Position numbers and translations under genes: made by a program. 64,000 nt of DNA from Candidatus Kerfeldbacteria bacterium (lineage in GTDB: Bacteria; Patescibacteriota; Patescibacteriia; SBBC01; CAIJZX01). A model generated the notes under the pieces. It ran no database searches, was not told where the DNA came from, and saw only the letters and a program-made list of their open reading frames with translations. Location: NCBI GenBank assembly GCA_016193315.1, contig JACPSJ010000001.1:219981-283980 (forward strand). Reading direction: 5' to 3'. Within the stretch, counting starts at the first letter, position 1; every line of letters starts with the position of its first letter. This document shows positions 7,882-23,672 of the stretch, piece by piece.

Positions 7882-10015
7882 ATGGAACCTAAACGGTTCT
7901 CCATCGACATCGGTGGTCGTGAATTGTCCCTCGAGACCGGCCAGCTGGCTGGTCAAGCCAATGGTGCGGTCACCGTTCGCTATGGTGAGACGGTGGTTTT
8001 GGCCACCGCCACGATGAGCAAAAAACTGCGGGAAGGGATCGATTTCTTCCCGCTGCTGGTCGATTACGAAGAGCGGCTCTACGCCGCCGGCAAGATCAAG
8101 GGTTCACGCTTCATTAAGCGCGAGGGCCGAGCCAGCGACGACGCGATCTTAACGGCCCGCCTGGTCGATCGCTCGATTCGCCCACTGTTTGATCAAGCCA
8201 TGCGAAATGACATCCAGGTGGTGATTACCGTTCTGTCGTGGGACCAGGAAAACGACGCCGATGTGCTGGCCCTGATCGGCGCTTCCACGGCGCTGATGAT
8301 CTCAAATATTCCGTGGGCCGGTCCGATCGGCGCCATTCGGGTCGGTCGGATCAACGGCGAATGGGCGCTCAACCCGACCTATGCGGCGCGGGACAAGAGC
8401 GATCTCGACATGGTCTTGGCCGCCAAGCGTGACGAGCACATGATGATTGAGGCCAGCGCTGGCGAAATCGACGAAGCGGTCGTTCTTGAAGGGCTGGAAT
8501 TCGCCCATAAGCACATTCGTCAGGTCATCGACCTGATCGAACAGGTGACCGCCGCGGTCGGACAACCGAAGCTGGCGATCGATACCAACGTCCTGTCGCC
8601 AGAAGAGCAGGCGGCCCGGGAAAAGCTAAAAACTAAGGTGCTGACTTTCTCCAATGGCAAATTACGGCAGATCTGGAAAACCAAGGACAAGCTGGAGCGT
8701 GAAGAAGCGATTACTAAGTTGACGGAAGAGCTTGATCAAGTCCTCAAGGCGGACAATGAGGTCAGTAAAGAGCAGCGGCTGGACGGCAAACACTTGCTCG
8801 AACAGCACCTCGATGACGAGGCGAGGCAGATGGTGTTAGATGAGGGAGTCCGGGTCGACGGCCGGAAACTCGATGAAATCCGCCCGCTGTCGGCCATCGT
8901 CGGTCTGGTGCCGCGGACGCATGGATCCGGTCTCTTTCAGCGCGGTGAAACGCAAGTCCTGTCACTCGTAACGCTGGGCTCGCCGGGTGATGAGCAATTG
9001 CAAGACACGATGGAGCTGACCGGCAAGAAACGCTACATGCACCATTATAACTTTCCCGGCTTTTCGACTGGCGAGGTGGCGCCGATTCGGAGCCCAGGCC
9101 GGCGCGAGATCGGCCACGGCGCCCTAGCCGAAAAAGCGCTATTGCCAGTGCTGCCAGCCAAAGAACAATTCCCCTATACCATTCGGGTGGTGTCCGAGGT
9201 CCTATCGTCGAACGGTTCGACGTCGCAAGCGTCAGTCTGCGGCTCAAGCTTAGCCTTGATGGATGCCGGTGTACCGAGCCGCACGCATGTAGCCGGTATC
9301 GCCATGGGCCTGATCAGCGATCAGACCAGTCCCCGTCCGCATCTCGGCCGAAGCCCTGGCCGGAGCCAAGAAAGCACGGGCCCAGATTCTGGAAGTGATG
9401 GCCCAAGCGATCGCCACGCCACGACCGGAATTGTCGAAATACGCGCCGCGCATTATTGCCATCAAGATCGATCCGGAGAAAATCCGCGACGTCATCGGCC
9501 GCGGCGGTGAAACGATCAATGAGATCATCGACGAGTGCGGCGGTCCGGATGTGATGAAGATCGACATCGAGCAGGACGGGACGGTCTATATCACCTCGAC
9601 CAAAGCCGACATGGCTCAGAAGGCCAAGACTTGGATTGAGAATTTGGTCAAAGACCTGCAGGTCGGTGAGGTTTACGAAGGGACGGTGACCGAGATAATC
9701 CGCGACCGGATGCGTGGTAATGAGATCGGGGCTATTGTCGAGGTCCTACCCGGCAAGGATGGGATGGTCCACATTTCCAACATCTCCCACACCCACATCC
9801 CGAACGTCTCAGACGTCCTGAAGATCGGCGATAAAGTCAAAGTAAAAGTAATGGAAGTCGACAAGGAACGCGGCCGCGTCAGCTTATCGATGAAGGCGCT
9901 GCAGCCAGGACCAGAAGGCGCCTTCGGCCTGGAACAGCCCCGCCAACGCCCGGGCGGATTCCGCGGCGACCGCGGACACCGCGACCGCGGCCCGAGGCAT
10001 CGGACTCGATTCTAA
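7882..10015 (+). pseudogene. pnp: Polynucleotide phosphorylase (PNPase), disrupted in this sequence. Frame 1 covers 7882 to about 9349 and frame 2 runs from about 9314 to 10015. About 35 aa spanning the conserved catalytic motif of the second RNase PH domain is absent.
   Basis: The N-terminal RNase PH domains are intact through AGIAMGLIS...HLG in frame 1. Frame 2 then resumes at ...EALAGAKKARAQILEVMAQAI, followed by the KH domain (IIAIKIDPEKIRDVIGRGGETINEI) and S1 domain (VGEVYEGTVTEII...GRVSLSMKA). The DMDFKVAGT segment is not found in any frame. Confidence 0.8.
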
Positions 10016-10154
10016 CCACCATCGTATGTTTCGCGGCCCCGACTCTGTCGGGGCCGCCGTATTTGATGGCCCGGCTGACAGTTGTTTGGTCGTTTGGTAT
10101 ACTTTTCTTCGGTTCGTTCGTTATCGGTCCGGGGCTCATCCGTGGAGGTTCTAG

Positions 10155-17500: not shown

Positions 17501-20500
17501 ATGTCTATGGCTGCGTCAAAATACGACCATCAGGCAATCGAAAAGAAATGGCAGCAAAGCTGGGTGGAAGCGGGCGTATTTCGCCCACCTCTCCCCACCG
17601 GCGCTTCGCGCCACCCCCCCTCAACCCCCGCTGCTGCGGAGAGGGGAGGACGTTCTACGTACGTCCTCGACATGTTCCCCTACCCTTCGGCTGACGGACT
17701 GCACGTCGGCCACCCAGAAGGGTACACGGCCACGGATATCGTCAGTCGATATTTACGGATGAAAGGCATGACCGTGCTCCACCCAATGGGCTGGGATGCC
17801 TTCGGCCTTCCTACTGAGAACGCCGCGATCCAAAAAAAGATTCATCCCCGGATCGTGACCGAACAAAACGTCAAGAATTTCAAACGGCAAATTATGTCGC
17901 TTGGCTTTTCGTATGACTGGGGCCGTGAACTCAACACCACCGACCCGAAATACTACAAATGGACGCAGTGGATATTCCTGCAGCTGTTCAAAAAAGGGTT
18001 GGCCTACGAAGCGGAGTTACCGATTTGGTGGTGTCCGAAAGACAAAACTGGCTTGGCCAATGAAGAAGTGGTGGGCGGAGTCTGCGACCGGTGCGGGACG
18101 AAAGTCGAGCGGAAAATGCTGCGGCAGTGGGTCTTGAGAATTACTGCGTACGCCGAACGTCTGCTCAAAGGCTTGGATAAACTCAATTGGCCGGAGAACA
18201 TTAAGGCGCTGCAGCGGAATTGGATTGGGAAGAGCCAGGGGGCAGAGGTAGTGTTTGGGATAAAAACTCCGAGTGCGAAAAAGCCCCAACTTTTTATTAG
18301 CACGAAAAATCCAGCCAAGAAAAAGAGATATGTTCATATGTTTGCGCCGCTGGGGGTCGACATTGTTACCACTGATGATCTTGGAAAGTCTGTCACTGAT
18401 GTAGAAGTTGAGGAGGGAGAAGATATAAAAGAAAATGCCTTAAAGAAAGCACAGATTTTTCATCAAGCAACCGGCTTGCCGACGCTCGCTATTGATGAGG
18501 GCTTGATTATTGATACTTTTCCGGCCAACCAACAACCGGGCTCGCACGTTCGTCGTATCCCTGGCTTTTCTGGGCGCCCGACTGATGAAGATATGTCGAC
18601 GTATTACATCAATGAAGTGGTTAAACACGGAGGTGAAAGTCTGGTCCACTGGGAACACGCAATCGCTTATGTCGATGAATTCGGCGCGAAGGAGACACAG
18701 ATCAAGGTTACATCCAGTAAGATCGTAGCCACGAAAAGTAAAAAAGTAAAAGACGGATACCCCCTCGATTCACTTCTTATTGATTTGAAAACAGGAAAAT
18801 ACCGTTCCGAATTGACCCCCAAAGAAGATGAAGCTGCAATTCAGCCACTCACAGATGCACTAACCAGATTTGTCTCCGGGGCTTTATCAAAAAGCTCACA
18901 AGTCACGGTATTCACCACTCGTCCGGACACGCTCTTTGGCGCGACGTACCTGGTCTTGTCGCCAGAACACCCGCTGGTTGATGTGATTACCACTCCCGAA
19001 AAGAAGCCCGCTGTTGAGAAGTACAAGAAAGAGGTGGCCAGCAAGTCGGATCTTGAACGGACGGCGCTTGAAAAGGAAAAGACCGGCGTGTTCACGGGCG
19101 CGTACGCGATCAATCCGGTCAACAACGAAAAAATCCCAGTCTGGATCGCGGATTACGTTTTGATGTCGTATGGCACCGGCGCAATTATGGCTGTGCCGGC
19201 GCATGATGAGCGTGACTACGAATTTGCGAAGAAACACGAATTACCAATTCGGGAAGTTATTATTCCGTACCGCTATTACAAACCCAATCCGCCGCGGCCG
19301 GGGAAGAAAACGGTGGAACGAAGGAACATTCACCCCATCGTCAAGAACCCGAGAACCGGAAAGTTTTTGGCTCTTCGTTGGACAAAGCATCCATGGGTCA
19401 CGTTCCCGATGGGCGGCATCGACGGCAATGAAGACATCGTCAAAGCGGCCGAACGAGAAGTAGCCGAGGAAACGGGCTACACTGATCTGAAGTTTGAACG
19501 AGTCTTGGGCGGTCAGGTGAAGGCGGAATATTTTGCCGCTCACAAAAACGAAAACCGCGTAGCTTACACGCAGGCGGTAGTGTTTTCATTGCGCAGCGAG
19601 AAGAGAATTCCGGTTCCGGAGCATGAGCTGAAAGAACACGAAGTCATTTGGCTCGACCCCAAAGAACTCAATTCGCAGGTGATGGTTCATGCCGAACTTG
19701 ACGTCTGGCTCCATCGCTTAGCCAGAGATGAGCATGCATACACGGGCGAAGGAGCGCTGATTAACTCCGGTCAGTTCGACGGACTGACGAGCGAAGATGG
19801 GCGGAAGAAAATCGTGGAATGGCTTAAGACGCAAGGCAAAGCCAAACCAAAGGTGAATTATAAACTCCGCGACTGGGTGTTTTCGCGGCAGCGGTACTGG
19901 GGCGAACCGATTCCGCTGGTGCACTGCGAAAATTGTGCGAATATTGTCCAATCTACGAATTATACTCTCCATTTCTCTGATCGCGAGATTTGGGGAGATT
20001 TGTTGAGTGGCAAGAAAACGATTGAAACTCGGGCCCTTAACCCCGAAGAGCCCGAGCGGTATTTCGGCAATATCAAACCTGGACACGCTACACCCGAGTC
20101 GTACATCAAAGGCATCTTCAAGCCGACCGGCGAAGTCGCATACTTTCGCGTCAAAAGCGTAAGAATCTACAAATCGCTGCGAAAACTCTTTGTCGATAAG
20201 AAAGTTCACGCAAAGATTTGGCCCGATCGGACATTCAAGACCTTGGAAGAATTGCGCCAATCACATGACGAACTGACGCCTGGCAATGCCGCCAAGATCG
20301 ATAAGAACGGTCTGATTGCCTTTGAAATCAAGCACGTGTTACCTGGCATCATCCCACTCAAGGAAGATGAATTGCCGCTCGAACTCCCGGACGTTGAAAG
20401 ATACGAACCGACTGGGATTGGCGAATCACCGTTGGCCGCGATTAACGAATGGGTCAATGTGAAGTGCCGCGTTTGCGGTCATCCGGCCAAGCGCGAAACG

Positions 20501-21421
20501 AACACCATGCCGCAGTGGGCCGGATCGTGCTGGTATTACCTTCGGTTTACTGATCCGCACAACGATACAGCCATGGCCTCGCCTGAAGCGATGAAAGTCT
20601 GGTTGCCGGTAGATCTCTATGTCGGCGGCGCAGAACACGCCGTGCTCCACCTCCTGTACGCCCGTTTCTGGCACATGGTCCTCTATGATATAGGCGCAAT
20701 TCCGAAGGAGGTCGGCGGCGAGCCGTTCCTGAAATTGAAGAATCAAGGACTCATCCTCGGCCCGGACGGCGAAAAAATGTCCAAGTCGCGCGGGAATGTC
20801 ATCAACCCCGACGACATCGTGGCCAAGTACGGCGCCGATACCTTGCGGATGTACGAAATGTTCATGGGGCCGTTTGAAGATGCCAAACCATGGGATACAA
20901 ATGGGATTGTCGGGGTGCGGCGGTTTTTGGATAAGGTTTGGCGGGCGGCTGAACGTCTTGATAATTCGAAACCAAATGATCGGTGGCATAAGTATGCGAA
21001 TATGATTACTCGAGGCATTGAAGAGTTCAGGTTTAATACTTGTGTCAGCGATCTTATGAAGTGGGTGAATGAATGGGGCGCGAAGTCGGTGTCTAAGGAG
21101 GAAATTGAAGTGTTTTTGAAAGTCTTGTCACCATTCGCGCCGCATATGGCCGAAGAACTTTGGCAACAACTCGGACATGAAACAATGTTGGTTCAGGAAT
21201 CTTGGCCTGAGTTCGATCCAGATCTTCTGCGCGATGACACCGTTACAATTGCCGTACAGGTGAATGGAAAACATCGCGGGAATGTTATCGTTCCAACCGG
21301 CTCGAATGAGTCCGTCGTTCGCGAAGCGGCGCAAGCGGAAGCGAATGTGAAGAAGTATTTAACGAGCGAGCCTAAGAAAGTGATTTTTGTGAAGGATAGG
21401 CTGATTAATTTTGTAGTATAG
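17501..21421 (+). CDS. leuS: Leucyl-tRNA synthetase, 1306 aa, with three inserted accessory domains
   Basis: Class I motifs: HVGHPEGY (HIGH), TTRPDTLFGATY (editing domain), AVPAHDERDYEFA and KMSKS (EKMSKSRGNV). Insert 1 (about 18262-18900) resembles Ham1/ITPase: VDIVTTDDLG, LAIDEGLIID and PGSHVRRIPGFSG. Insert 2 (about 19264-19738) has the Nudix box GGIDGNEDIVKAAEREVAEETGY. Insert 3 (about 19948-20362) has the ASCH signature GKKTIETR (GxKxxExR). Confidence 0.9.
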   Translation: MSMAASKYDHQAIEKKWQQSWVEAGVFRPPLPTGASRHPPSTPAAAERGGRSTYVLDMFPYPSADGLHVGHPEGYTATDIVSRYLRMKGMTVLHPMGWDAFGLPTENAAIQKKIHPRIVTEQNVKNFKRQIMSLGFSYDWGRELNTTDPKYYKWTQWIFLQLFKKGLAYEAELPIWWCPKDKTGLANEEVVGGVCDRCGTKVERKMLRQWVLRITAYAERLLKGLDKLNWPENIKALQRNWIGKSQGAEVVFGIKTPSAKKPQLFISTKNPAKKKRYVHMFAPLGVDIVTTDDLGKSVTDVEVEEGEDIKENALKKAQIFHQATGLPTLAIDEGLIIDTFPANQQPGSHVRRIPGFSGRPTDEDMSTYYINEVVKHGGESLVHWEHAIAYVDEFGAKETQIKVTSSKIVATKSKKVKDGYPLDSLLIDLKTGKYRSELTPKEDEAAIQPLTDALTRFVSGALSKSSQVTVFTTRPDTLFGATYLVLSPEHPLVDVITTPEKKPAVEKYKKEVASKSDLERTALEKEKTGVFTGAYAINPVNNEKIPVWIADYVLMSYGTGAIMAVPAHDERDYEFAKKHELPIREVIIPYRYYKPNPPRPGKKTVERRNIHPIVKNPRTGKFLALRWTKHPWVTFPMGGIDGNEDIVKAAEREVAEETGYTDLKFERVLGGQVKAEYFAAHKNENRVAYTQAVVFSLRSEKRIPVPEHELKEHEVIWLDPKELNSQVMVHAELDVWLHRLARDEHAYTGEGALINSGQFDGLTSEDGRKKIVEWLKTQGKAKPKVNYKLRDWVFSRQRYWGEPIPLVHCENCANIVQSTNYTLHFSDREIWGDLLSGKKTIETRALNPEEPERYFGNIKPGHATPESYIKGIFKPTGEVAYFRVKSVRIYKSLRKLFVDKKVHAKIWPDRTFKTLEELRQSHDELTPGNAAKIDKNGLIAFEIKHVLPGIIPLKEDELPLELPDVERYEPTGIGESPLAAINEWVNVKCRVCGHPAKRETNTMPQWAGSCWYYLRFTDPHNDTAMASPEAMKVWLPVDLYVGGAEHAVLHLLYARFWHMVLYDIGAIPKEVGGEPFLKLKNQGLILGPDGEKMSKSRGNVINPDDIVAKYGADTLRMYEMFMGPFEDAKPWDTNGIVGVRRFLDKVWRAAERLDNSKPNDRWHKYANMITRGIEEFRFNTCVSDLMKWVNEWGAKSVSKEEIEVFLKVLSPFAPHMAEELWQQLGHETMLVQESWPEFDPDLLRDDTVTIAVQVNGKHRGNVIVPTGSNESVVREAAQAEANVKKYLTSEPKKVIFVKDRLINFVV

Positions 21422-21431
21422 ACTCTCTACT

Positions 21432-22385
21432 TTGCAACCCCTTGATAGAATTGATTACACGGGCGATATAAAGACATTACTTCAGAAGGTTTGTGGCTCA
21501 TTTGACATTGGCTTACTGCAAAAATATTCGTTGATAGAGACGGGTTACGAAGACTGCAATATTATCCTTGAAACAAAAGAAGGTAAGTTTTTATGTAAGA
21601 TTTTTTCAAAGAAAAGAACGCCAGCAGATGTTCAAAGGTACTCTGAAATAATGAAAAAAGTAGTTGAGGCTGGAGTGCGCCACCCTGAACTTCAAAAAAC
21701 TGAAAATCATCAAGTACTTTTTAGCCACAAAGCCCCAGCGCTTGTTTTGATGCGGTTTATCGAGGGCGAGACATTCCTCGAACTGGATCGACCACCGAAC
21801 AACTCTGAACGCAAGGACGTATTACAACAGGCGGCTATCATCAACGCCATTGATTTCACCCCACCGTACTTATTTGACTCTTGGGCCATCCCACATATTC
21901 ATACAATGTTTGATAAGGTCAAGAAGTATATTCAACCGGCGGACCGGCTACTGGTAAAACAAGCCATGGATCGATACGATGCTATCCCGGTCGCAAGCTT
22001 GCCCAAATGTTTCGTGCATGGTGATTTTACCAAGGCGAACATTCTCAAAGGGAACGACGGAAAGATTTATATTCTTGATTTCTCGGTCGCGAATCGATAC
22101 CCACGAATTCAAGAGTTAGCGGTCATCGCCGCCAATCTCATGTTTGAGAAGGGCAAGGATGGCTCGTTACCATCGACGTGTACGTCCCTTGCGACTGAAT
22201 ACAATTCATTCTTGCCGCTCACAAAAGACGAAATTGAGCATCTTTACCCCTATGCACTGGCCGGAGTGGCGATGGAATTTATGGGTGCTCATCAGGAGAA
22301 GTTTATCAACGGCAATGACACGGAAGAGACAAACTACTGGATGCATCTAGGTCGATCAGGTCTCAAGCAAGCACTAGGAAAATGA
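21432..22385 (+). CDS. Aminoglycoside/choline-kinase (APH/ChoK) family phosphotransferase
   Basis: Catalytic loop VHGDFTKANIL and metal-binding YILDFSVAN; about 42% GC. Confidence 0.7.
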   Translation: MQPLDRIDYTGDIKTLLQKVCGSFDIGLLQKYSLIETGYEDCNIILETKEGKFLCKIFSKKRTPADVQRYSEIMKKVVEAGVRHPELQKTENHQVLFSHKAPALVLMRFIEGETFLELDRPPNNSERKDVLQQAAIINAIDFTPPYLFDSWAIPHIHTMFDKVKKYIQPADRLLVKQAMDRYDAIPVASLPKCFVHGDFTKANILKGNDGKIYILDFSVANRYPRIQELAVIAANLMFEKGKDGSLPSTCTSLATEYNSFLPLTKDEIEHLYPYALAGVAMEFMGAHQEKFINGNDTEETNYWMHLGRSGLKQALGK

Positions 22386-22435
22386 TTTTCGTGGAGGATA
22401 ATCCGATTTGTATTTACCCTCAATGGATTTTCCGC

Positions 22436-22464
22436 TTGACTTCACCTTGGCAAGAGGATAGTAT
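22436..22464 (+). promoter_or_regulatory. Sigma70-like promoter TTGACT-17-TAGTAT, followed by two short GC hairpins in the 5-prime UTR
   Basis: TTGACT at 22436-41 and TAGTAT at 22459-64; hairpins GGTGGCGGACCACC and CCGCACCACGTCGGGTGCGG. Confidence 0.45.
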
Positions 22465-22506
22465 GGTCCTAACAAATTCTGGTGGCGGACCACCGCACCA
22501 CGTCGG

Positions 22507-22977
22507 GTGCGGGGCAAGATAACTATCTCTATGCGCCAAGAGCGTATTTCGACTAGGAAAAACATGAAAAAGTCGCTCCGGACCCTCGTTGAGGAAGGGT
22601 TTGGAAAAATAGGCATTCTTGAGAGCAAAGTGAACGGAGGGTTTGGGCGGGTCGCCAATCTCGAGAAAACGGTCAAGAAACTTGCGGCAACCATGCAGCA
22701 AGGCTTTCAGCGCATCGACCAACGCATGGACCGAGGCTTCATAAAAGTTCATGAGGATCACGAAGAATTGGCCAAGATGGTCAAGCAAGGGTTTGATGAT
22801 ATGGACGAACGGATCGACCAACGATTCAGTCATGTCGACCAACGGTTTGACACGGTCGATGCTGAAATTGGAGCAATCAATCGGCGGTTGGCTCAAGCCG
22901 TCTACCAAAACGAATTCGTGGCTCTTGAATCCCGGGTCACGACGTTGGAACGGCGGACGGGACTTTCGAAAAAGTAA
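22507..22977 (+). CDS. Hypothetical coiled-coil protein with internal short repeats (QGF.RIDQR.DRGF)
   Basis: Repeated Q-G-F/D-Q-R units; an alternative start is at 22564 (MKKSL). Confidence 0.4.
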   Translation: MRGKITISMRQERISTRKNMKKSLRTLVEEGFGKIGILESKVNGGFGRVANLEKTVKKLAATMQQGFQRIDQRMDRGFIKVHEDHEELAKMVKQGFDDMDERIDQRFSHVDQRFDTVDAEIGAINRRLAQAVYQNEFVALESRVTTLERRTGLSKK

Positions 22978-23015
22978 AAAAGCACCAAGACTGGCGCCAT
23001 CAAACGCTTTTTTGT

Positions 23016-23672
23016 TTGATTGAAATACGGTACAATCGGTGTGTGGTTGTTAGCAATAAAGCAAAATACATTCGGTCCGGTGAAGTTATTCTCTTTCCCA
23101 CCGAATCCTTCTACGCCCTTGGCGCGGACGCCACGAACGGGCGGGCGGTGAAAAAAATCTTTCGACTTAAGAGCCGTGCAAGAGGAAAACCGATCGCCGT
23201 CATGTGTGGCAGTTGGCGGCAAATAAAACAATACTTTGTCATGAACAAAACTGAGCGACAGTTCGCCCGTCAAAACTGGCCCGGGCCGGTGACGTTGTTA
23301 CTGAAACCAAGACGGCAGGTTGCGGCCGCGGCCTTGGCCCCGGTTGTCTCCTCACCCACCCTCTCCTCAGCGAGGAGAGGAAGTGGTGGAGGCCAAGGCC
23401 GCGGCCGGCACATTAGAATTGGCGTCCGTATTCCGGCCCACGCGCGAGCGAGAAAGCTCGCGCTGTCTGTGGGCGCGCCCATCACCGCCACCAGCGCTAA
23501 TCGGACAGGCAGACCGCCGACGAAATCCGCCGCTGCCGTCCGGCGAGCTTTTCCTGGTATGATGATTATGCCGGGGCGGTGCGGACGGCAGCGGCGGCCA
23601 TCGACCGTCATCGAAATTCGGCATGGTCAGATTGTCGTCTTGCGCCCGGGGGCACTGACATTGTCACCATGA
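23016..23672 (+). CDS. tsaC: L-threonylcarbamoyladenylate synthase (YrdC/Sua5 domain) carrying an in-frame palindromic insertion
   Basis: ILFPTESFYALGADATNGRAVKKIFRLKSRARGKPIAV and the C-terminal IRIGVRIPAH...TSANRTGRPP are YrdC motifs. The low-complexity segment AAAALAPVVSSPTLSSARRGSGGGQGRGR is encoded by an 86-bp inverted repeat. Confidence 0.7.
   Translation: MIEIRYNRCVVVSNKAKYIRSGEVILFPTESFYALGADATNGRAVKKIFRLKSRARGKPIAVMCGSWRQIKQYFVMNKTERQFARQNWPGPVTLLLKPRRQVAAAALAPVVSSPTLSSARRGSGGGQGRGRHIRIGVRIPAHARARKLALSVGAPITATSANRTGRPPTKSAAAVRRAFPGMMIMPGRCGRQRRPSTVIEIRHGQIVVLRPGALTLSP
23323..23408. repeat. 86-bp near-perfect palindromic element inserted in frame in tsaC
   Basis: Arms GCGGCCGCGGCCTTGGCC / GGCCAAGGCCGCGGCC (16/16 complementary) and an inner CTCTCCTC-AGC-GAGGAGAG. 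Confidence 0.55.

Follow-up and report, generated by a model that had tools for sequence, protein, structure and literature searches.

Two essential genes of the translation apparatus, leuS and tsaC, carry short palindromic insertions inside their reading frames within a 64-kb stretch of genomic DNA (hereafter, the window) from an uncultured member of Candidatus Kerfeldbacteria, a lineage of the Candidate Phyla Radiation (CPR, Patescibacteria). The encoded proteins, leucyl-tRNA synthetase and L-threonylcarbamoyladenylate synthase, were recognized by the respective family models (Table 1). The match of TIGR00057 to TsaC consists of two stretches with the insert between them, whereas 97 positions of the TIGR00396 profile were aligned with the N-terminal 113 residues of LeuS. 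The TsaC protein of the window is 100% identical to a Kerfeldbacteria protein (P0001) found on five contigs, one of which is 857 kb long.

Table 1. Coordinates of the two host genes, their palindromic elements and the additional domains of LeuS. Nucleotide positions are those of the 64-kb window.
Feature	Position	Strand	Description
leuS	17501-21421	+	leucyl-tRNA synthetase, 1306 aa; Pfam tRNA-synt_1, tRNA-synt_1_2, Anticodon_1
Diverged full-length element, leuS	17592-17651	+	5' box 17592-17599; hairpin 1 GGCGC-TTC-GCGCC 17600-17612; degraded hairpin 2
Degraded hairpin 2, leuS copy	17614-17622 with 17641-17649	+	16 extra nt in loop
LeuS nested domain, Ham1p_like/ITPase	aa 265-444
LeuS nested domain, NUDIX	aa 615-726
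LeuS nested domain, ASCH-like	~aa 790-930		Pfam E 0.0014, below cut-off
tsaC	23016-23672	+	L-threonylcarbamoyladenylate synthase, 218 aa; Pfam Sua5_yciO_yrdC E 3.5e-42; TIGR00057
Left arm of outer stem, tsaC	23323-23339	+	native codons A103-A108 (AAAALA), outside the insert; (I/V)AAxAL kept in insert-free orthologues
Net in-frame insertion, tsaC	23340-23408	+	69 nt, 23 codons P109-R131, peptide PVVSSPTLSSARRGSGGGQGRGR
Element core, tsaC	23347-23380	+	direct repeat TCTCCTC at 23347-23353 and 23362-23368; hairpin 2 CCTCTCCTC-agc-GAGGAGAGG at 23360-23380
Right arm of outer stem, tsaC	23391-23407	+	codons G126-R131 at the 3' end of the insert; reverse complement of the native left arm, without mismatch

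The palindrome in tsaC has 17-nt arms that are 100% complementary and 51 nt apart, spans 85 nt overall (23323-23407) and encloses an inner perfect 9-bp stem, CCTCTCCTC/GAGGAGAGG. The reading frame passes through the hairpin without a stop codon, as stated in a preliminary description of this locus. RNA folding of the region 23315-23415 gave -67.9 kcal/mol (z = -6.4), and none of 200 shuffled sequences folded as well. The longest perfect inverted repeats of the window (loops of up to 60 nt) measure 17 and 16 nt and both lie within tsaC; the maxima in 40 order-2 Markov simulations of the window were 10-14 nt. The same description took the entire palindrome for an 86-bp insert with terminal inverted repeats, which holds for the right arm only, since the left arm consists of native, conserved AAAALA codons and the net insertion amounts to 69 nt. 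Accordingly, the segment from WP to GVR comprises 46 aa in the window TsaC versus 23 aa in eight insert-free orthologues. The AlphaFold2 model of TsaC (mean pLDDT 84.2, pTM 0.80) is weak in residues 1-8 and 110-129, the latter being inside the insert and having pLDDT below 50 in an otherwise confident fold. The insert appears in the model as a disordered loop at the surface.

The palindrome in leuS is weak, with 16-nt arms that are 81% complementary and a fold (z -2.4) equalled by 3 of 200 shuffles. The 7-nt pair CCTCTCC (17588-17594) and GGAGAGG (17638-17644), noted in the preliminary description, is present, as are additional residues before the MFPYPS motif, the proposed size of about 24 aa being an overestimate. 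Between F27 and Y54, ahead of YVLDMFPYPS, there are 26 aa versus 11 aa in four orthologues. The interval from KKW to LDMF measures 126 nt in the window, 81 nt in L004, L085, L088 and L089, 111 nt in L002 and 174 nt in L091, and the net insert of the window is about 45 nt, or about 15 codons. The element falls inside the stretch translated as PPLPTGASRHPPSTPAAAERGGRS (R28-T53).

Distribution of the insertions among Kerfeldbacteria orthologues

We aligned 33 Kerfeldbacteria-type TsaC proteins and read the DNA of 14 orthologous tsaC genes. Eight of the proteins have nothing between IAARALG and ARRIGVRVP, whereas the other 25 have 12-40 extra residues at this place (site 2), and ten of the 14 genes read as DNA carry a site-2 insert; several also have an insert a few residues upstream (site 1). 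At site 1 of the L087 gene, a GC hairpin lies inside the loop of a C/G hairpin. Among the seven comparable LeuS orthologues (L090 was left out, as its called start could not be aligned), the insert is absent from four. The alignments thus bear out the earlier proposal that the insertions are in frame and vary between lineages. At the leuS site of the window insert, L002 has a canonical copy without P1, and L091 (5212-5400) has a 93-nt insert of nested hairpins. An in-frame C-rich/G-rich hairpin, CCCCCCCT..AGGGGGGG, was also observed inside the leuS gene of L088 (8649-8719).

The reading frame is kept in all 25 insert-bearing TsaC proteins, and the ribosome would therefore translate through the insert. 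All ten site-2 inserts contain a hairpin of 8-10 perfect base pairs whose left arm consists of pyrimidines and whose right arm consists of purines, the stem sequences differing by lineage (CCTCTCCTC, CCTCTCCTT, CCTCTCCTCC, CCCCTCCTT, CCCCTCCT, CCCCTCCTC, CCCCCTCCT). When synonymous codons were resampled with the peptide fixed, the real sequence folded better in seven of twelve orthologues (z -3.3 to -4.0). The frame in which the hairpin is translated varies among orthologues, giving GHPSxxKEG, PLLxxEG or PSxxRRG; since the gene stays open while the hairpin changes frame, the encoded peptide is a passenger.

On a neighbour-joining tree, the insert-free tsaC genes are scattered among the insert-bearing ones. 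The closest filled and empty alleles form a sister pair, P0035 and P0059, which are about 80% identical, belong to one bin and differ by a 36-nt element without hairpin 1. Several gains or precise losses are therefore needed to explain the distribution. These two alleles are too diverged to fix the ends of the insertion or a target-site duplication. In assembly GCA_016194465.1, two tsaC alleles of about 80% identity, one with and one without the element, lie at contig ends (L212 10001-10606 and L213 263-838) and are identical over their last ~150 nt, which suggests that the assembly broke at tsaC through a mixture of strains or through recombination.

In the outer stem of the tsaC palindrome, the window insert closes with a mismatch-free inverted copy of the 17 preceding native bases, and other orthologues build complementary arm pairs upon AAxAL codons of their own (17 bp in L087, 13+9 bp in L086, 12 bp in L001 and 11 bp in L004). 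Among insert-free genes, L090 forms a 12-bp hairpin, GCGGCGCGCGCC-CTC-GGCGCGTGCCGC, from the codons AARA|L|GACR (synonymous-codon z -4.2), L089 forms a 7-bp hairpin, and L091 and L213 form none. The element thus sits at the tip of a quasi-palindrome in the coding sequence, one that in some cases exists in its absence and whose arms stay or become complementary. Such complementarity needs either selection for a long hairpin or self-templated quasi-palindrome correction, between which the data do not separate. The idea that the element always targets the loop of a pre-existing hairpin was rejected, since it fits L090 and, weakly, L089, but not L091, L213 or the leuS site; for tsaC alone, such targeting is a possibility.

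A second perfect inverted repeat of 16 nt, CCGCCGCTGCCGTCCG / CGGACGGCAGCGGCGG, is found in the window tsaC at 23527-23542 / 23582-23597. Its arms fall in the conserved residues SAAAVRR and CGRQRR and bracket a conserved D-F-P-G-I-L codon motif. The repeat is missing in 11 orthologues and specific to this lineage, and its presence suggests that a palindrome-perfecting process acts here.

A dispersed family of hairpin repeats

The inserts are members of a dispersed repeat family whose copies are numerous elsewhere, in both metagenomic and Kerfeldbacteria loci; a hairpin family had been proposed in the preliminary description. Its consensus consists of a 5' box, (A)ACCACCCC, hairpin 1, GGCC(C)-TTCG-(G)GGCC, and hairpin 2, ACCCCTCCT(Y)-loop-(R)AGGAGGGGA, the final A being present in 91% of copies. 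The unit is 35-50 nt long, hairpin 1 is optional and can take ~30 extra nt, and the 5' box recurs as the left arm of hairpin 2 (CCACCCCTCCT-loop-AGGAGGGGA). A longer unit, ACCACCCC-GGCC TTC GGCC-ACCCCTCCTT-aaaa-AAGGAGGGG, occurs in several Kerfeldbacteria orthologues. Where the 5' box varies, the left arm of hairpin 2 varies with it, and in the window tsaC the two appear as the TCTCCTC direct repeat. A CCTCTCC variant with the full family architecture was found in a Doudnabacteria genome (L022:4755-4798). The tsaC and leuS sites therefore do share an element, as had been supposed, but what links them is the 5' C-rich box, hairpin 1 and the C-rich/G-rich hairpin 2 rather than mainly the CCTCTCC core.

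A covariance model (R1) was built from 16 metagenomic copies, none of them from Kerfeldbacteria, and every position of the window was scored with filters off. Only two sites had E < 0.01, namely leuS 17592-17651 and tsaC 23338-23390. The leuS site is the best in the window (25.3 bits, E 2.1e-5, model positions 1-45 of 45), and the tsaC site matched on both strands, at 23338-23382 (+) with 19.7 bits and at 23358-23390 (-) with 20.2 bits (E about 6e-4 to 8e-4). Since a model of copies from outside Kerfeldbacteria matches just these two places, no other part of the 64 kb fits the family as well as the sites that had been chosen by eye. At the corresponding tsaC and leuS positions in other Kerfeldbacteria loci, R1 scored 36-61 bits. 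As a control, we scanned 1.23 Mb from 78 unrelated named genomes, matched through the generic GxPITATSAN pattern of the TsaC alignment, and found matches only at two Doudnabacteria and two Nitrospirae loci.

In an alignment of 96 copies, which was fitted to R1 and so favours the structure, double-sided changes occur at 13 of the 14 base pairs, and pairing is seen in 94.6% of cells. The covariation score amounts to 0.220 versus 0.072 in shuffled alignments (none of 500 reached the real value) and no more than 0.062 when the partners were slid. Of 1249 cells, only 3 have one-sided changes such as G-U. We therefore read the element as a DNA palindrome constrained on both strands rather than as an RNA helix.

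Within Kerfeldbacteria, in-frame copies were found in tsaC (two sites and the 5' end) and leuS. The single 6-kb contig L001 has a near-identical 45-nt unit twice in one tsaC and once in an intergenic region. In L085, the unit is located at the junction of leuS and tsaC, inside the 5' end called for tsaC, and just behind pnp. Copies located just 3' of the pnp stop codon were observed in three Kerfeldbacteria (L004 1460-1511; L085 1705-1786; L088 2043-2095 and 2580-2626); the equivalent place of the window (10033-10057) has an unrelated 11-bp GC hairpin.

We further scanned metagenomes for the exact 21-base core with the pattern GGCCACCCCTCCTN{3,8}AGGAGGGG. At least 120 stretches were retrieved, and the 80 loci examined hold at least 91 copies. 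The host contigs range from 36% to 68% GC, and one of them carries Acido-Lenti-1 RNAs. The family is thus abundant in environmental bacteria of very different GC content and common in soil and groundwater metagenomes. Copies are mostly intergenic: among the matches listed, only 2 of 91 are verifiably intragenic, both in the opposite orientation and in frame, one in a glutamyl-tRNA synthetase between the catalytic and anticodon-binding domains (L152) and the other in a Wzy_C protein (L166). Ten long open frames that span copies and have no Pfam domain were left out of this count. Only seven viral contigs of IMG/VR contain the core, and phages are not an obvious reservoir.

Many copies are paired. 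Inverted doublets were found at L151 1378-1560 and L022 215-340, and many -/+ pairs occur in L121, L143, L147 and L125, with up to three doublets in 10.6 kb of L143; the window has no inverted doublet. Some soil contigs carry palindromic composites of ~200 nt (L147 2855-3031; L143 2070-2235, 5915-6095 and 10425-10560; L125 2695-2880), arranged as an outer arm, hairpin 2, hairpin 1, the 5' box and a spacer, followed by their mirror image. The outer arm has a conserved sequence (ACGCCCGCCCGAACACGTCA...). The L147 composite has GTAG...CTAC at its outer ends and is possibly flanked by TA..TA, and L125 has GTAG at the left outer end only.

Two general roles were considered for the repeat and rejected. 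A stretch of TTTT follows within 12 nt downstream of just 14 of 87 copies, which does not fit a terminator, and a start codon with an open reading frame (ORF) of at least 80 codons follows just 4 of 87, which does not fit a ribosome-binding site or 5'-UTR. The search of Rfam 15 at the gathering threshold in the window and 15 loci returned only tRNAs and Acido-Lenti-1, none of them at an element, and with E-values of up to 5 there was no match at the elements of 6 loci. Literature searches with the sequence string and for palindromic in-frame insertions of CPR bacteria and miniature inverted-repeat transposable elements, or MITEs, of Patescibacteria found no description of the element.

Relation to known elements and possible origin

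Both inserts are probably copies of one family of short interspersed DNA palindromes, selfish or neutral, of the type represented by repetitive extragenic palindromic sequences (REPs) and their doublets (REPINs) or by MITEs. Our verdict is that the window element belongs to a previously uncatalogued family of a known kind, that of intragenic palindromes resembling REPs or Rickettsia palindromic elements (RPEs). Copies would have arisen by insertion of the element, probably via single-stranded hairpins and an enzyme acting in trans, and would persist only in surface loops that can accommodate 10-25 additional low-complexity residues. In tsaC, the native codons AAxAL|G.RR would form a GC-rich quasi-palindrome, at whose tip the element came to sit. 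The arms beside the hairpin may later have been kept or made complementary by self-templated correction or by selection, a process that in the window lineage would have led to the perfect 17-bp outer stem. The element presumably plays no role in the chemistry of either enzyme.

The preliminary description had likened the inserts to RPEs, which are palindromic elements of ~100-150 bp found in frame in Rickettsia genes (Ogata et al. 2000, 2002, as summarised in PMC10969869). The comparison is apt for the behaviour of the element, as in both cases palindromic repeats lie in frame in unrelated housekeeping genes of a small genome, with tRNA-related genes among the targets, and the extra peptide is translated, presumably so in Kerfeldbacteria, at tolerant surface positions without destroying the protein. 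Kinship is another matter. There is no sequence similarity, and the element measures 35-70 nt versus about 100-150 bp for RPEs. An RPE family is defined by a conserved peptide, whereas here the same DNA appears in several frames, and RPEs are confined to Rickettsia, whereas the present element is mostly intergenic and occurs in several phyla. When NCBIfam was searched (E up to 10) with TsaC, the N-terminal part of LeuS and the peptides of the inserts, only TsaC and aminoacyl-tRNA synthetase models and no RPE model were matched.

REPs and REPINs share with the family their short, GC-rich, imperfectly palindromic sequence, occurrence in multiple copies, mostly extragenic location, inverted doublets and helices kept by double-sided changes, as expected of DNA palindromes. 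Some REPs likewise lie wholly inside ORFs (Di Nocera et al. 2013, PMC3733652). However, neither a GTAG nor a CGTC tag is part of the consensus ACCACCCC...AGGAGGGGA. CGTC appears only in the GTCC variant of hairpin 1, and GTAG only at the outer end of two of about five composites, from one kind of soil contig. The unit also differs in having two hairpins and a 5' box that recurs in hairpin 2 as its left arm. No REP-associated tyrosine transposase (RAYT) was found in what was only a crude screen. Finally, REP families are normally species-specific, whereas the element has the same 21-base core in hosts whose GC content ranges from 36% to 68%.

MITEs, such as the Correia elements of Neisseria, BOX, RUP and SPRITE of pneumococcus and Nezha of cyanobacteria (review PMC10969869), are also non-autonomous, hairpin-forming and dispersed in or beside genes, with palindromic units of 100-250 nt. 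No terminal inverted repeats with a target-site duplication could be defined for the element, which is not known to have a parent insertion sequence, and the Kerfeldbacteria units are far shorter than typical MITEs. The small dispersed repeats of cyanobacteria, which Elhai and co-workers reportedly described in 2008 as very small palindromes inside genes, nested in other hairpins and leaving gene function intact, are said to be alike in size and in intragenic or nested placement, and to differ in sequence and taxa.

Several observations weigh against selfish or neutral DNA as the explanation. Near-identical genomes with an insertion polymorphism, a target-site duplication and a transposase were sought and none was found, so mobility can only be inferred. 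A motif screen for HUH + Tyr in 388 ORFs within 700 nt of elements gave no match, but it was too crude for a valid negative. The window has only two copies, both intragenic, of which that in tsaC has no hairpin 1 and reaches only ~20 bits. The claim that the family is active in this genome is not supported: both occupied sites are also filled in Kerfeldbacteria that are ~50% identical in protein, and hairpin 2 of the leuS copy is degraded. Site 2 of tsaC is filled in most Kerfeldbacteria, always with a perfect 8-10 bp hairpin, and a 12-bp hairpin exists there even in the insert-free L090 gene. Decay like that of the leuS copy would be expected of neutral selfish DNA, and the tsaC site fits selection for a hairpin at least as well. 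The main uncertainty is therefore whether the tsaC hairpin is merely tolerated or also used.

A bolder version, which we regard as possible but tentative, holds that the ACCACCCC-P1-CCACCCCTCCT...AGGAGGGGA unit is an undescribed cross-phylum repeat family with its own hairpin-based mode of spreading or its own function, which colonises essential genes in streamlined CPR genomes, nests at the tip of an existing coding hairpin and drives concerted evolution of the flanking codons. The identical 21-base core at 36-68% GC, the covariation of the 5' box with the left arm of hairpin 2 and the lack of a GTAG/CGTC tag would set such a unit apart from REPs, RPEs and MITEs. If so, complementarity of DNA dictates the protein sequence beside the insert.

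Another explanation, which appears unlikely, is that the tsaC hairpin is a selected nucleic-acid structure, such as a signal in the mRNA that governs its processing, stability or pausing, or a binding site for the TsaC protein, and that the repeat family merely supplied or resembles this module. The persistence of a perfect hairpin in ten site-2 inserts at ~50% protein divergence, with stems that differ compensatorily, the covariation of the outer stems with native codons and the synonymous-codon z values down to -4.2, including that of the insert-free L090, would all be accounted for; moreover, E. coli YrdC reportedly binds double-stranded RNA, as communicated by Teplova and co-workers in 2000. 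Yet the same element is found in intergenic regions, in both orientations and in unrelated genes, and 8 of 33 Kerfeldbacteria TsaC lack the insert. Three of the four insert-free genes with DNA have little hairpin (L089, 7 bp) or none (L091, L213). The near-absence of G-U pairs across the family again indicates a DNA palindrome rather than an RNA helix.

It is more doubtful still that the palindromes were made locally by template switching, through fold-back synthesis or quasi-palindrome correction, with no mobile element involved and the insert consisting of an inverted copy of its neighbour plus filler. Indeed, the segment 23391-23407, with which the insert ends, exactly inverts the native codons just 5' of the insertion point, several orthologues have lineage-specific outer stems of their own, and the same gene contains the lineage-specific 16-nt repeat 23527-23542 / 23582-23597 with arms in conserved residues. 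Local synthesis leaves unexplained, however, a core that matches a model from unrelated organisms, the near-identical 45-nt copies at three places of one 6-kb contig (L001) and a leuS copy without flanking inverted duplication. Template switching explains the outer stem only and, for that part, probably belongs to the best explanation.

An ordinary lineage-specific protein loop with a function at the protein level, in which palindromic DNA is incidental to a low-complexity Pro/Ser...Arg/Gly peptide, is highly improbable. Although the frame is kept without stops in all insert-bearing orthologues and the recurring peptide motifs seem conserved at first sight, these motifs are the same DNA in different frames, the structure exceeds what the peptide requires and the insert is modelled as disordered; in addition, intergenic copies exist and many orthologues have no insert. 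An assembly or amplification artefact, e.g., a fold-back chimera, is hardly credible: the source is a metagenome-assembled genome and pnp in the window has an apparent 125-nt deletion with a frameshift, but the identical TsaC protein is present on 5 contigs from NCBI and Logan assemblies, and homologous inserts with a preserved frame occupy the same codon in many independent assemblies.

Protein-coding palindromes have long been presented as a peculiarity of Rickettsia, and here an unrelated element has the same outcome in two translation-apparatus genes of a CPR bacterium with a genome below 1 Mb. A model of the element would remove spurious ORFs that arise from its frames (TTPALRATPP..GGE, GHPS..KEG, PPLL..EG) and would flag insertion-tolerant loops in essential enzymes. 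The family also offers a tractable case of a hairpin repeat spreading between phyla and of a DNA palindrome dictating neighbouring amino acids; if the tsaC hairpin is selected, what it offers instead is a conserved structure in the tsaC gene or mRNA.

Other features of leuS, pnp and tsaC

The LeuS protein of the window owes its length of 1306 aa to three nested extra domains, the Ham1p_like/ITPase and NUDIX domains and an ASCH-like segment (Table 1). Among other Kerfeldbacteria, LeuS proteins of 816-817 aa have none of the three, those of 945 and 1082 aa have NUDIX, that of 994 aa has ASCH, and that of 1265 aa has Ham1 and NUDIX.

The pnp gene (7882-10015) is broken at ~9321-9329 into a frame with the RNase_PH and PNPase domains (7882-9510) and a frame with the KH and S1 domains (9395-10015). 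Compared with an orthologue, residues 298-341 (44 residues) are absent and the frame is shifted, which reflects either a pseudogene or an assembly deletion of ~125 nt.

Finally, the D-F-P-G-I-L codons of tsaC (~23549-23563) are kept at the nucleotide level, including third positions, as GATTTTCCTGGTATACT among the genes compared (the window, L001, L002, L004, L005, L085, L086, L087 and L089), the window sequence being TGGTATGAT. Judging from its sequence, GATTTTCCTGGTATACT may be an extended -10 promoter element (TGnTATACT) and thus an internal promoter for the downstream MFS gene.

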